Positions 14,254 to 18,132 of a stretch of 64,000 nt of DNA are shown here, one piece after another. This DNA comes from Patescibacteria group bacterium (lineage in GTDB: Bacteria; Patescibacteriota; Patescibacteriia; UBA9570; JAHJKD01): NCBI GenBank assembly GCA_018822435.1, contig JAHJKD010000049.1:6511-70510 (forward strand), written 5' to 3'. Under the pieces are notes generated by a model that was not told the origin of the DNA, did not search any database, and was given only the letters and a program-made list of their open reading frames with translations. The stretch's first letter is position 1. Each line of letters starts with the position of its first letter. Both the position numbers and the translations under genes were made by a program.

Positions 14254-15189
14254 TTATAATTTCTTCAGGGTGATCCTGGTTCCGTTAAAATCCAGACAGG
14301 CGCGCTTGTCCCATTTCCAAAAATTCAGAGGGGCCGGGACTTTGCCAGCGCCACCGGGCACGTCGATGACATAGAGCGGGCAGGCCAGGCCGGACAAGCG
14401 GCTCCGAAGCTTGGTCATGATCTCGGTTTCTTTCTTGAAATCAACGATAAAATGTTCAGCACCCGAGACGTAATCACAGCGAAAAATATAATAGGGCTTG
14501 ATGCCGATCTCGATCAGGCCGGAAAAAAGGTCGTAAAGAGTCTTGACGTTGTCATTGACTCCCTTTAGGAAGACGGATTGCGATAAAATCATGGTGACAT
14601 GAGGCTGGAGGCGGCGGATGGCCCGCACTGTGGCCGGATTGATCTCGGCCGGGTGCTCGAAGTGGACCATGAGATAGAGCGGCTGGCGTTTGACTGCATC
14701 CAGGGCGGCAAGCACTTTTTTGTCCGCCTGGCGCGGATCAGACACGGGCAAGCGCGTGCCCACGCGCAGGACCTTGATCTGGGGCAGGCGGGAAAAGCGG
14801 GTCAGGGCCTTTTTTAAAAGAATGGGAACGGTCAGAGGATCTCCCCCGGAAATTATCAGCTCTTTTATTTCCGGATGTTTCTTGAGGTAGGCCACGATAT
14901 TGTCCAGGTCCTTGTCTGTAATGACGCCTTTTTTGAGATCAGAAACCTTGCGCCGGCGCGTGCAAAAACGGCAATAGGCGGCGCAGTTCATGGTCAGGAG
15001 CACTAGGGCGCGGTTGCCGTATTTATGCACCAGGCCGCGGGTGGCGGTATGTTCCTCTTCCATAAGAGGATCAGCGGTGGTCATCTTTTCGTCCCAGCCC
15101 TCTTTTTTTGAAGGCACAAACTCGCGATGCACGGCCGGGCAGGTCTTGATGATGGTTTCTAAATGGGGTGATAAGCGCTTGCTGAGCAT
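14254..15189 (-). CDS. KamA-family radical SAM aminomutase (lysine 2,3-aminomutase / EpmB-like), GC-rich
   Basis: CAAYCRFCTRR (CxxxCxxC), ISGGDPL, VHFEHPAE, FLKGVNDN, GIKPYYIFRCDYVSGAEHF, IDVPGGAGKVP motifs. Confidence 0.8.
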   Translation of the reverse strand: MLSKRLSPHLETIIKTCPAVHREFVPSKKEGWDEKMTTADPLMEEEHTATRGLVHKYGNRALVLLTMNCAAYCRFCTRRRKVSDLKKGVITDKDLDNIVAYLKKHPEIKELIISGGDPLTVPILLKKALTRFSRLPQIKVLRVGTRLPVSDPRQADKKVLAALDAVKRQPLYLMVHFEHPAEINPATVRAIRRLQPHVTMILSQSVFLKGVNDNVKTLYDLFSGLIEIGIKPYYIFRCDYVSGAEHFIVDFKKETEIMTKLRSRLSGLACPLYVIDVPGGAGKVPAPLNFWKWDKRACLDFNGTRITLKKL

Positions 15190-15202
15190 TTTTTATTTAA
15201 AA

Positions 15203-16237
15203 TTATTTTTTTATGCAATTATATTTGATACCATAGCGGTGGCAGGCTGATTTCAGGATAGCGGCGATCATGCCGTCATAGGCCAGACCGGCCGCGCGGG
15301 CAGCGCGGGGAAAGCGCGAATTTTCACGCGGGTCTGGAATTATCCCGGGCGGGCAATTGATCTCAATCACATAGGGTGTGCTCTTCTTGAGCCGCAGGTC
15401 GATCCGCGCCCAGTCGGCCATTTCCAACGCCTGGAAAGTGTGGCGGCAGACCTGGCTGATCTTCTTGGCCAGGGCCGGGCTGATCTTGGCCGGGCAGACC
15501 AGGGGGTCGGCCTCGTGCTGGGGATCGTCATAGACCCATTTGGCCTCGTAGTGGTCGAATTTGGGCATGTGGGCAGGCAGAGCATCGAAAGTCACTTCTA
15601 TAATGGGCAGGACGCGAGGCGGCGTGCCCAGCAGGGCGACCGTGAACTCGCGACCCTCTATATATTCCTCGATAATGACGCTCTGGCCGTGCTGGCGGAT
15701 GATGTCATCCGCTACCCTGACCAGGTCGGCATGGTTGCCAACCAGATTGGCGCTGCCGATGCCCTTGCTCGAGCCTTCGCCGAGGGGCTTGACGATGGCC
15801 GGAAAAAAATCAACATTATCGGGCCGTATTTCCGCAGCGGCCCTAGCCGTGAACCAGCGCGGCGTCGGGATCTTGTGGGCCAGGAGGACTTCCTTGGCCT
15901 TAGCCTTGTGTAGGCCGAGGGCGTAGCCCAGCGGACTGGGGCCGGTATAGGGGATCTCGAGCATTTCCAGCATGGCCGGGATCTGGGCCTCGCGATCCAG
16001 GCCGTGCATGCCTTCGGCTATATTGAATACCAGGTCGAGCTGCTGCCTCAGGTCATGAAGCTTCTTATAGGCAGAATGATCGGCTTCGATGCAAAAAACA
16101 GTATGGCCGAGCCCTTGCAAGGCGTCGTAAATGCCGGCAATGGTGGCTGGTTCGTCAAATTCCGCTTCCATAATATATTGAGGGTCGTCCATGTCCGGTT
16201 TGACGTGGCGGACGTTGTAGGTGAAGCCGATATTCAT
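15203..16237 (-). CDS. D-alanine--D-alanine ligase-family ATP-grasp enzyme, GC-rich (ATG at 16237; track uses upstream TTG at 16258)
   Basis: Ddl-like N-domain, AIVKPLGEGSSKGI, IEEYIEGREFTV, RIDLRL...VIEINCPPG motifs. Confidence 0.75.
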   Translation of the reverse strand: MNIGFTYNVRHVKPDMDDPQYIMEAEFDEPATIAGIYDALQGLGHTVFCIEADHSAYKKLHDLRQQLDLVFNIAEGMHGLDREAQIPAMLEMLEIPYTGPSPLGYALGLHKAKAKEVLLAHKIPTPRWFTARAAAEIRPDNVDFFPAIVKPLGEGSSKGIGSANLVGNHADLVRVADDIIRQHGQSVIIEEYIEGREFTVALLGTPPRVLPIIEVTFDALPAHMPKFDHYEAKWVYDDPQHEADPLVCPAKISPALAKKISQVCRHTFQALEMADWARIDLRLKKSTPYVIEINCPPGIIPDPRENSRFPRAARAAGLAYDGMIAAILKSACHRYGIKYNCIKK

Positions 16238-16399
16238 AAAATTAAAAAAACCCAGCAAAGGGGCTCACTTTTAATGGGTCTTAAATTGAGGTTTTTAGCT
16301 TTAGCGGCTGTTGTCAGGCAGTCCGGAGGATGATCATCGTCATCCTTTAATATTTCTGTTTCCATTTTTTTATTCAAATATATTCTACTCCGGTTTTTT

Positions 16400-16850
16400 C
16401 CGGTGTCAATATCTGCCGGAAACAGGCTGTGTATAAATTAGAATAATACCGGTCGCTGCCTGATGGGATAGAACCACCAGACAGCGACCAGGATCCTGAT
16501 GCGGGGGAGAGAGGCCATTGGTCTGAAAGAAATCCATGGCTAGTTTCCCCTGCTCTGTACAGCCTCCGAGGCCATCCACCGCTTTCGCTGGGTTGGGCTC
16601 ATCCGGTTGTACTGGGCTCGTTGGTTACAGGAGAGCCTCAGATAGAACCTACGGAAAGGGTCAATCTGTGGACAGTTGGGATCATCTGTCCCGGAAGGTA
16701 CGGTTCGTTCATTTGGCTTGCTGACCTTGGTCATGAAACACCTCCTCATGGCGGCCGGTTGAACGGGCCTTTTTATCTTACCCCCATGGCAAAACAAAAA
16801 GCTTCTTACCCCGATAATGCAGAATAAGAAGCTTTTTGTCTTCTTGCCTT
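16400..16850 (+). ncRNA. Candidate structured noncoding RNA in a GC-rich island (family not identified)
   Basis: No credible ORF; extended -10 TGtTATAAA at 16430-16438; nested GC-rich hairpins such as GGUCGCUG..CAGCGACC; ends at a 13-bp hairpin. Confidence 0.25.
16805..16850. terminator. Bidirectional terminator-like perfect 13-bp hairpin (AAAAAGCTTCTTA ...16-nt loop... TAAGAAGCTTTTT)
   Basis: Seen directly; U-runs on both strands. Confidence 0.6.
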
Positions 16851-17032
16851 TCGATAAACTCAAGGCCATATCTTCCTCCAAGGGGGGCAGGACTTACCAC
16901 CCGGCTTATCCGGGTTGGCGAGCAGTCAACGGGCCTGATCCCTCGTGCTTCTCTTGATATTTTTGAATTGCAATGAACTATAAATATTCTAACAAATATT
17001 TCTTACCTTCGCAACGATTTTCTTGGGGATAA

Positions 17033-17278
17033 TTAAAACCAGCTCTTCTTCTGTTTATTTTTATCTTCATCCAGGGCATCTAACTGTTTTTGCCTCATTT
17101 CATCTTCAGCTTGTTGCTGGACTTTTTGCAAATTCATGTCAGCCATCTGTAATTTTTGCTCGGCCAGACGATAAGCTCTTTTAGAAGCGTCTAAATCCTG
17201 CTTGGCCCGATCAAACTCCTGCTTGACTCGTTGCTGTTCAGCCTCGGCCATGGGTAAATCTTGATCTACTAATGACAT
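17033..17278 (-). CDS. Small coiled-coil protein (81 aa from MSLVDQ...; track start overlaps tRNA)
   Basis: Heptad Gln/Glu/Lys-rich sequence; internal ATG avoids tRNA overlap. Confidence 0.4.
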   Translation of the reverse strand: MSLVDQDLPMAEAEQQRVKQEFDRAKQDLDASKRAYRLAEQKLQMADMNLQKVQQQAEDEMRQKQLDALDEDKNKQKKSWF

Positions 17279-17296
17279 ATTTTTTAAATTAATTTG

Positions 17297-17369
17297 TCGG
17301 ACTGGCGGGACTCGAACCCACGACCTCACGCACCCGAGGCGTGCGCGCTACCAACTGCGCTACAGTCCG
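17297..17369 (-). tRNA. tRNA-Pro (anticodon CGG)
   Basis: Manual fold: acceptor CGGACUG/CAGUCCG, anticodon stem CACGC/GCGUG, loop CUCGGGU, T-loop UUCGAGU; no encoded CCA. Confidence 0.85.
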
Positions 17370-17382
17370 TCTGGAACAGATA

Positions 17383-18132
17383 TTACCCTCCAAAAAAGAT
17401 TTTGACAACCCACATAAAGGCCACGCCCAAGACGAACATAAAAAAAGATAGCAAAGACTTGCTTAGCTTCTTTTCTTTATGCAATTCCGGGATTAAATCC
17501 GAGGCAGCAATATAAATAAATCCGCCCGCCGCAAACGGCAGGATAAAATCGATAAACTCATTGGTCTGATTGGCAAAATAAAAACCAATAATAGCGCCAA
17601 CTACAGCCAGAAGGGCCGTGCCAAAATTATATAGCAGAGCTTTGCCGCGGGACAAGCCGGCATGGATCAGGACGCCGAAGTCGGAAATTTCCTGCGGCAA
17701 TTCATGGAAAATGACAGCAATTGATGTGGCGACTCCCAACTGGAAATCGACGACAAAAGCGGCGGCAATAATAAGGCCGTCCAGAAAATTATGGACGCCA
17801 TCCCCGATCAGGTTCGTATAAGCAAAAGTGTGGACATCGCATTCCCCTTCATTTTCATGGCAATGATGCCATTGCAGAAGCCTCTCAATAATGAAGAAAA
17901 GGGAAAAACCGATAATAACTGCTAAACCGATTACATCCCAATCGCCCTCTTCAGCTGCTTCCGGGATCAAATGCAGAAGCGCGCCGCCCATCAGGGCACC
18001 GGCGGAAAAACCGACCAGTAAAATTGTGATCTTTTTTAATGTTTTTTTATTTATAGCCAAGAAGACAATGCCTAATAAAGAAATGAGGCTGATTATACCA
18101 GTGGCAATTAATGCGGCTAATAATGGGGACAT
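17383..18132 (-). CDS. ZIP-family metal (Zn2+/Fe2+) transporter
   Basis: His-rich loop (HHCHENEGECDVH) and HELPQE-type motif. Confidence 0.8.
   Translation of the reverse strand: MSPLLAALIATGIISLISLLGIVFLAINKKTLKKITILLVGFSAGALMGGALLHLIPEAAEEGDWDVIGLAVIIGFSLFFIIERLLQWHHCHENEGECDVHTFAYTNLIGDGVHNFLDGLIIAAAFVVDFQLGVATSIAVIFHELPQEISDFGVLIHAGLSRGKALLYNFGTALLAVVGAIIGFYFANQTNEFIDFILPFAAGGFIYIAASDLIPELHKEKKLSKSLLSFFMFVLGVAFMWVVKIFFGG

Follow-up and report, generated by a model that had tools for sequence, protein, structure and literature searches.

Between positions 16259 and 17030 of a 64-kb window of Patescibacteria DNA (the whole stretch presented above), we found an S-adenosylmethionine (SAM)-I (S-box) riboswitch aptamer, an intrinsic terminator and a 64-codon open reading frame (ORF) in series, and sequence comparison with relatives showed these three parts to be conserved as a module. 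This interval, in which the original prediction saw a large, novel structured RNA, is neither one large RNA nor noncoding. It most likely consists of two ordinary transcription units on the minus strand, namely a small gene controlled by SAM and then an operon of ATP-grasp and KamA-family genes with its own leader. All neighbouring genes lie on the minus strand, and the parts of the interval are read here 5' to 3' on that strand. The interval is bounded by the Ddl-like ATP-grasp gene (ATG at 16237, minus strand) and by a small coiled-coil ORF together with tRNA-Pro(CGG), the tRNA gene that had been correctly noted as adjacent. What emerges is a bona fide S-box in the Patescibacteria, or candidate phyla radiation (CPR), before a tiny protein gene that gene callers miss, and a false lead is removed: there is no new large ornate RNA here.

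The SAM-I riboswitch and its expression platform

The aptamer was matched to Rfam model RF00162 with a score of 47.9 bits against a gathering threshold of 44.4 (E-value 7e-8 for the 64-kb window), over model positions 1-108 of 108, and it was the sole non-tRNA Rfam match at gathering thresholds in the entire window. The core strings AUCAAGAG, GAGGGA, GGCCC, CAACC, GGUGNUAA and AGAUA were all recovered in the cmscan alignment, and helices P2-P4 are composed largely of standard pairs; the outer three pairs of helix P1 are non-standard. A cmscan against Rfam, with a match to a known family as the refuting outcome, had been named in the original prediction as the check to be made, and it returned SAM-I. 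A structured RNA is thus present, in the form of this element of about 100 nucleotides (nt) at 16865-16963; it is not large, novel or part of a noncoding gene, and it lies on the strand opposite to the one that had been favoured. The string CCCGGCUUAUCC, thought to resemble the P4 helix of RNase P, turned out, once reverse-complemented, to be the P3 hairpin of this aptamer.

Two kinds of relatives were informative. The loci L169 and L170, from two NCBI Patescibacteria metagenome-assembled genomes (MAGs), encode an ATP-grasp protein 61% identical to that of the window (the closest ATP-grasp homologues are at most 66% identical) and have the same neighbourhood, consisting of the coiled-coil ORF, tRNA-Pro, a gap of ~630 nt, ATP-grasp, KamA, a CBS protein and a transporter of the ArsB/CitMHS type. 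The gap in L169 contains, in order, a TG-TATAAT promoter, a SAM-I aptamer, a near-identical terminator, the invariant Shine-Dalgarno (SD) string AGGAGGTG and a short ORF; next come a large hairpin of unrelated sequence, the invariant string ATTTATACACAGC, a TTGACG-16-TAAAAT promoter and a leader alignable with 16238-16380. What the window and L169 have kept in common lies mainly in the promoters, the aptamer, the terminator, the SD and the leader, the body of the ORF having diverged. The second kind of relative is represented by L167 and L168, which carry ORFs homologous to the small one. On L168, an unrelated contig, an aptamer, a terminator, GAGGAG, a 64-amino-acid (aa) homologue and a post-ORF hairpin follow one another in the same order on the same strand. 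Searches with blastn and nhmmer against 160 ATP-grasp loci from genome and metagenome scans, all too distant at no more than 60% protein identity, detected no DNA-level homology.

Each part of the leader has counterparts in these relatives. Promoter P1 of the window is alignable with a TTTGCA-17-TATAAT promoter at the same place in L169, likewise with TG before the -10 box. The aptamer of L169/L170 is ~90% identical to that of the window and scores 47.7 bits, and the L168 aptamer, which is truncated at its 5' end by the contig end, lies upstream of the homologous ORF and scores 37.4 bits (E-value 6.5e-6). The terminator, a feature that had been recognized as a 13-bp bidirectional one at 16805-16846, is real; we placed its hairpin at 16791-16846, with A- and U-tracts on either side and a core stem AAGCUUCUUA/UAAGAAGCUU followed by UUUGUUUUG. 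In L168 it is shorter (GUCUUAC-ACGG-GUAAGAU, then a run of seven U), and L167 starts inside the same terminator. The arrangement is that of an expression platform, with the terminator directly 3' of the aptamer and then the SD and ATG (16746/16734), on the same strand as the gene. The string GAGGAGGTG lies ~45 nt past the U-tract of the terminator and is followed by the ATG at 16734; the SD is invariant in L169 and is replaced by GAGGAG in L167 and L168.

In S-box leaders, binding of SAM stabilises the aptamer and lets a terminator form. By analogy with this established behaviour, we infer SAM binding and an OFF logic for the leader described here. Promoter P1 would transcribe the riboswitch; when SAM is plentiful, the aptamer would bind it, the terminator at 16846-16791 would form and transcription would stop ~60 nt short of the AGGAGG and ATG of the small gene. 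When SAM is scarce, RNA polymerase would read through and the small protein would be made. Our literature search found nothing on SAM riboswitches in the CPR.

The small gene and its protein family

The original prediction had held that no credible ORF lies in the interval. The minus-strand ORF was dismissed there for containing a hairpin; the version so dismissed was TTG-initiated and 113 codons long, and the real start is located downstream of the hairpin. The 64-codon ORF that begins there is preceded by AGGAGG and has homologues under purifying selection. Although a word-indexed protein search with this ORF gave nothing, an exhaustive comparison by phmmer with 1.84 billion representatives matched it to P0122, a protein of 64 aa (E-value 1.8e-4), and a profile built from the two recovered a third member, P0124. 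All three are 64 aa long and have the common core P.[LI][DE]PFR.FYL[KR]LS....A.YN..S......W. To judge from the pattern of sequence change, the family codes for protein and is under purifying selection at the protein level, because the ORFs of L167 and L168 differ mostly at third codon positions: 36 of 195 positions differ, 22 of these 36 being third positions, so that the synonymous divergence pS is 0.53, the nonsynonymous divergence pN is 0.088 and pN/pS is 0.166. No gene is called across the ORF in the source contig, nor at the matching position in L169.

The proteins of the family are basic, with isoelectric points (pI) of 9.3-10.5, that of the window being at 10.5. AlphaFold2, given the three-sequence alignment, predicted a disordered N-terminus and three short helices (residues 26-33, 36-44 and 47-62), with a mean confidence score (pLDDT) of 67.6 and a core near 85. 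Pfam, NCBIfam, PDB sequence-profile and Foldseek searches against the PDB produced no significant match; no relative was found in viral contigs, and the window has no second copy of the family. Several candidates were set aside. The phmmer matches P0121 and P0123 are low-complexity repeat proteins. The pattern RRFYLRLS..N.R..Y.RMS resembles the PUR-alpha repeat RRYYLDLKENARGRFLRVS, with a PDB profile E-value of 2-3 and an ORF too short for such a repeat, and the resemblance was attributed to chance. A likeness to the HMG box, noted by eye only, does not fit the predicted helices. As a guess from these predictions, the small protein may be a nucleic-acid-binding or regulatory (partner) protein that would be expressed under SAM starvation.

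An 18-bp hairpin 3' of the ORF would close the small-gene unit. Hairpins of other sequence were found at the same position in L169, L167 and L168, the structure being kept and the sequence not. Between this hairpin and the promoter P2 of the downstream operon sits the block ATTTATACACAGC, for which the roles of terminator tail, operator and antisense -10 box are all conceivable.

As a side observation, L167 (465-813) and L168 (640-965) share, downstream of the ORF, a noncoding element of ~270 nt with 80% identity, which contains a promoter-like CTTTACA-N17-TGCTTAAAT, a hairpin GGTTCCTGTTTGC...AACAGGAACC and a terminator. This element, which has no Rfam match and no counterpart in the window, may be a small RNA.

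The downstream operon and its leader

The AT-rich stretch 16238-16448 belongs to the ATP-grasp/KamA operon, as its promoter and leader. Both hexamers of its promoter P2 are conserved in L169 (TTGACG-16-TAAAAT), with a diverged spacer between them. P2 would start a leader of ~140 nt, which includes a 43-codon upstream ORF (uORF). Its ATG at 16365 is ~10 nt past the expected P2 start site, its TGA overlaps the ATG of the ATP-grasp gene as ATGA, and it encodes the acidic-proline motif DDDDHPPD. The uORF of L169, which begins MEQEPPDCLKTA, differs from that of the window by an in-frame indel of 24 nt.

Acidic-proline uORFs were also found in leaders of related operons, those of L162, L165, L002, L163, L171, L174 and L178; the motifs in related leaders include AEEPEPN, SKDPSPDG, SEDPFK, TEDPFPN, SEDPLTN and EEDDPPS, and EQEPPD and [ST]EDP[FL] are other forms seen. 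L174 encodes EDP as GAG GAT CCT and other loci as GAA GAC CCG or CCC, and these synonymous codons argue for conservation at the level of the peptide. An ATG-initiated ORF of at least 15 aa that matches [DE][DE].{0,1}P, a motif defined post hoc after the data had been seen, was present in 7 of 10 leaders, compared with a mean of 0.06 and a maximum of 2 in 500 shuffles, and in none on the reverse strand. Just before the start of the ATP-grasp gene, the window has a weak terminator-like hairpin inside the uORF, and stronger hairpins of the form ACCCAAG...CUUGGGUUUUUU occupy the same place in L162, L165, L002, L177 and L178. In 9 of 10 leaders, the stop codon of the uORF was placed, by script or from reading the sequence, between -48 and +10 nt from the 5' arm of the hairpin, that is, inside or at most 10 nt before a terminator of this type. 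Folding disclosed no second (antiterminator) helix.

This geometry would fit a leader-peptide attenuator or a precursor gene followed by a leaky terminator. Through attenuation or translational coupling, the uORF probably makes expression of the operon depend on whether the leader is translated. Asp/Glu-Pro-Pro motifs are classic stall sites that depend on elongation factor P (EF-P), and in a translation-sensing attenuator, ribosome slowing at such a motif would decide whether the leader terminator forms. Alternatively, the uORF could be a substrate peptide of the ATP-grasp/KamA enzymes. The uORF-plus-terminator leader is the most novel thing in the interval. Taken jointly, the proposals that the SAM-repressed 64-aa basic protein is a SAM-starvation regulator, or that the uORF is a translation-sensing attenuator or an enzyme substrate, are tentative ones that we hold to be possible and rather less than probable. 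If true, they would mean a previously unseen regulator of SAM starvation in ultra-small bacteria unable to make methionine, and a link between translation capacity and the expression of an EpmB-like aminomutase and a ligase.

Table 1. Features in and around the studied interval, numbered by position in the window; positions joined by "to" are given in the direction of reading.
Feature	Position	Strand	Basis
Promoter P1, TTGCGA-17-TAGAAT with TG before -10 (extended -10)	17014 to 16986	-	promoter scan
SAM-I (S-box) aptamer	16963 to 16865	-	Rfam RF00162
Intrinsic terminator, bidirectional form, riboswitch expression platform	16846 to 16791	-	minimum-free-energy hairpin, z -6.9; A-/U-tracts on both sides
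Shine-Dalgarno AGGAGG, 6 nt before ATG	16746 to 16741	-	sequence
64-codon ORF (MTKVSKPNERTVPSGTDDPNCPQIDPFRRFYLRLSCNQRAQYNRMSPTQRKRWMASEAVQSRGN), putative riboswitch-controlled gene	16734 to 16540	-	homologues, pN/pS
18-bp hairpin 3' of small ORF, candidate terminator or stabiliser of mRNA 3' end	16491 to 16449	-	folding free energy -34.7 kcal/mol, z -6.7
Conserved block ATTTATACACAGC (minus), read on the plus strand as TGTGTATAAAT in the original prediction	16426..16440	.	invariant between window and L169 in a diverged spacer
Promoter P2, TTGACA-16-TAGAAT, 11/12 matches	16409 to 16382	-	promoter scan
43-codon uORF (METEILKDDDDHPPDCLTT...)	16365 to 16234	-	ORF list; also called in source contig
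Weak terminator-like hairpin AAGACCCA...UGGGUUUU with U-run, inside uORF, just before ATP-grasp start	16282 to 16241	-	z -0.7
Ddl-like ATP-grasp ligase gene	15203-16237	-	Pfam, NCBIfam
KamA-family radical-SAM gene	14254-15189	-	NCBIfam TIGR00238
tRNA-Pro(CGG)	17296-17369	-	tRNA and Rfam scans; context

Several observations were made on the genes around the interval. The small coiled-coil ORF is kept in L169, with 81 aa in the window (17033-17369, together with the tRNA gene) and 96 aa in L169 (1500-1866), both ending in ..KK[SG]WF, and the order of this ORF and tRNA-Pro is swapped between the two. The ATP-grasp gene of the window has a GC content of 60% (0.72 at third codon positions, GC3) and KamA one of 54% (GC3 0.67), over 14254-16237, compared with 41% and 40% for the orthologues in L169 and 42% for the genome; the two genes thus form a compositional island in a conserved gene order, which could reflect xenologous replacement.

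In most relatives among the Patescibacteria, a second Ddl-like ATP-grasp paralogue of ~340 aa occupies the first position of the operon, directly upstream, mostly with an overlap of 4 nt or a gap of a few nt (L162 1969-2988; L163 1979-3004; L165 2003-3004; L171 1479-2504; L174 and L177 1476-2495), the identity between the two paralogues being ~27%. The second paralogue is missing from the window, L169/L170 and L178. Clusters of ATP-grasp (often in two copies) and KamA-family genes are widespread outside the Patescibacteria too, occurring with varying gene order in Ignavibacteria/Bacteroidota, Deltaproteobacteria, DPANN archaea and Thermoplasmatales (L002-L161), and our literature search found nothing on the function of such ATP-grasp and aminomutase clusters. 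At the distant loci L030, L041, L060, L077, L092, L093 and L100, a conserved ORF of ~58 aa with the pattern MLASTLGIELDE.LGWDEKKEIYRISDKIV.TTN.TQSA.VKGDGK lies directly upstream of ATP-grasp; the loci with this ORF come from five Deltaproteobacteria MAGs and three unassigned metagenome contigs, and the ORF may be the end of a longer gene.

Weighing the evidence and the alternative explanations

A number of points weigh against the reading of the interval as a SAM-controlled small gene followed by an operon with a regulatory leader. Standard pairs number only ~5 in helix P1 of the aptamer, whose score exceeds the gathering threshold by just 3.5 bits. A classical antiterminator helix was not found in constrained folds, which gave only a 6-7-bp pairing of the 5' arm of the terminator with AGAGAAGC of the aptamer or with a nearby AAGAAG; these models suggest that the 5' segment AGAGAAGC of the aptamer, a mimic of the 3' arm UAAGAAGC of the terminator, can pair with the terminator 5' arm. 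The regulated gene does not belong to sulfur, methionine or SAM metabolism or transport, which is atypical for an S-box, albeit this is a usual association and not a structural requirement. Only three family members are known, and the syntenic ORF of L169 is only 39 codons long and no more than marginally similar (hhalign E-value 0.0024 and probability 12%, with no BLASTP alignment). The uORF has no SD, and its motif is post hoc. The hairpins that follow the small ORFs lack a canonical U-tract right after the stem, so that some read-through into the ATP-grasp/KamA unit is possible.

Such read-through is at the heart of the alternative that survives best, according to which the riboswitch governs the whole operon, the small ORF being its first cistron and ATP-grasp and KamA coming under SAM control. 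The riboswitch module does adjoin ATP-grasp/KamA in two species (window and L169/L170), the post-ORF hairpins have no clean U-run, and KamA-family enzymes, to which the window protein belongs by its match to TIGR00238, use SAM. However, a well-matched promoter, P2, has been kept in the stretch from the hairpin to the operon, and the riboswitch-ORF module stands alone in L168, beside unrelated genes. No SAM riboswitch was found in any of the 14 related ATP-grasp/KamA loci scanned, and such a riboswitch is thus not a general feature of these operons; to turn off a SAM-requiring enzyme when SAM is high would also make no regulatory sense. We consider control of the whole operon unlikely.

The model of the original prediction, a structured noncoding RNA of ~400 nt transcribed on the plus strand from TATAAA at ~16432 to the terminator at 16805-16846 and antisense to the small ORF, was weighed against composition, folding and conservation. 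The region had been described as about 60% GC; we measured 47% over 16259-17030, 55% in the core at 16449-16800 and 37% in 16259-16448, on a genome background of ~42%. It is the small ORF with its hairpin, and no ornate noncoding RNA, that makes the core GC-rich. The island that had been noticed arose because the small ORFs are richer in GC than their genomes; those under riboswitch control have 53-58% GC versus 38-42% for their genomes or contigs (window 16540-16734; L167 101-295; L168 246-440; L169 2125-2244). A blastn search of the region against the window revealed no second copy, so no repeat or mobile element was seen. A far more stable fold was obtained for the 606 nt at 16259-16864 than for shuffled sequences (z -8.0 on the minus strand, -5.2 on the plus strand), and this signal comes mainly from the hairpins at 16791-16846 and 16449-16491, each with a z-score near -7. 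Between them, at 16495-16800, the minus strand folds unremarkably (z -1.6) and the plus strand moderately better than shuffles (z -3.7), the latter being a point in favour of a plus-strand RNA.

The local stems that had been cited exist: the 18-bp hairpin, GGACAG/CUGUCC (16671-16695) and UGACC/GGUCA (16723-16735) are all in the sequence. As evidence for a noncoding RNA they fail, since the segment with GGACAG/CUGUCC and UGACC/GGUCA is deleted in L169, the opposite of what is expected of a conserved structured RNA. The proposed extended -10 promoter of the plus strand (16430-16438) has a mixed record. Its TATAAA block of 13-15 nt is invariant between the window and L169, A/T-rich strings resembling TATAAAT or TAAAAT occur at the same place in L167 and L168, and a T-run accompanies the terminator also when it is read on the plus strand. 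On the other side, a -35 box is missing, the site was passed over by the promoter scan, and the block can as well be explained as a U-rich tail to the terminator of the ORF or as a site that belongs to P2. Sequence change in the segment follows codon structure. A permissive Rfam scan of 16100-17400 at E-values up to 5 gave, apart from the SAM-I and tRNA matches, only short matches far below threshold to microRNA, small nucleolar RNA, CRISPR-repeat, small-RNA and cis-regulatory families, and there was no match to RNase P, tmRNA, SRP or any large-RNA family on either strand. A plus-strand noncoding RNA, which might be present alongside the riboswitch unit and act as a cis-antisense regulator, is therefore improbable in our view.

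Terminated S-box transcripts have been described as regulatory RNAs in Listeria, and the riboswitch transcript might itself be the functional product here, with an untranslated ORF. The terminated product would be a stable RNA of ~190 nt that ends in a strong hairpin, and the ORF family is tiny, with an L169 version that is poorly conserved. The pN/pS of 0.17 with its excess of third-position changes, the SD and ATG conserved in four loci and the length of 64 aa kept in three members speak for translation, and we regard an untranslated ORF as very unlikely. Finally, the idea that the GC-rich core is a decayed relic of the second ATP-grasp paralogue, which L162-L166, L171-L177, L002 and L012 carry exactly there and whose appeal lies also in a core GC similar to that of the window ATP-grasp gene, is essentially refuted, as tblastn with three paralogues gave a best E-value of 1.7 in a 2.3-kb target, hmmsearch --max with paralogue and A1 profiles against six-frame pieces gave negative bit scores only, Pfam at E-values up to 10 on ten six-frame pieces gave nothing, and the stretch is explained by a conserved ORF of another family.

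The two-unit reading, with a SAM-controlled small gene and a separate operon, has implications beyond this interval. Orphan small ORFs under metabolite control may offer a cheap route to new regulators in organisms for which almost no regulation is known, and the conserved uORF-terminator leader provides a concrete handle on the role of the widespread, uncharacterised ATP-grasp/KamA cluster.

Comparison with known systems

Large ornate noncoding RNAs (OLE, GOLLD, ROOL, HEARO and raiA) and RNase P resemble the segment in that it is richer in GC than its genome, contains many hairpins and lies by a tRNA gene. The segment differs from them in having no Rfam match of this kind even at E-values up to 5, in stems that are not conserved in L169, and in encoding a protein under purifying selection.

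The operon leader shares with the attenuators of trp, his and pheA a short uORF that stops in a terminator-like hairpin, or no more than 10 nt away from it, just ahead of the first structural gene. In contrast to those systems, no alternative antiterminator hairpin was identified, and what is conserved is not a run of codons for an amino acid that the pathway produces but codons for Asp/Glu and then Pro (DDDDHPPD, EEDDPP, EDPF). The window has a weak hairpin and an ATGA overlap of its uORF with the start codon, an arrangement suggestive of translational coupling. Clusters for ribosomally synthesised and post-translationally modified peptides (RiPPs) are similar with regard to the uORF only, a small motif-bearing ORF that directly precedes genes for two kinds of enzymes that modify peptides or amino acids (ATP-grasp ligase and radical-SAM enzyme), from which a hairpin separates it; however, the ATP-grasp enzymes here are Ddl-like and not of the graspetide type, the radical-SAM enzyme is an aminomutase of the KamA type, whose family is known to act on free amino acids, the cluster has neither protease nor exporter, and the peptide is a predicted one.

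The closest likeness of the first unit is to the S-box of the Bacillus subtilis met and cys leaders. It differs from these in its host, a Patescibacteria (CPR) genome, in its short helix P1, in showing no evident canonical antiterminator that uses the 3' strand of P1, and in its target, a 64-codon ORF of an unannotated family instead of a gene for methionine, cysteine, SAM or a transporter. The aptamer of the window is nevertheless full length, with the four-helix layout, the conserved core and a score above the gathering threshold, and it occupies the 5' leader of the gene, in the same orientation, with an intrinsic terminator following it, which is the classical transcriptional OFF design. 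The riboswitch belongs to a long-known class; it comes from a phylum that has received little study, and its target gene is unusual and has no annotation.

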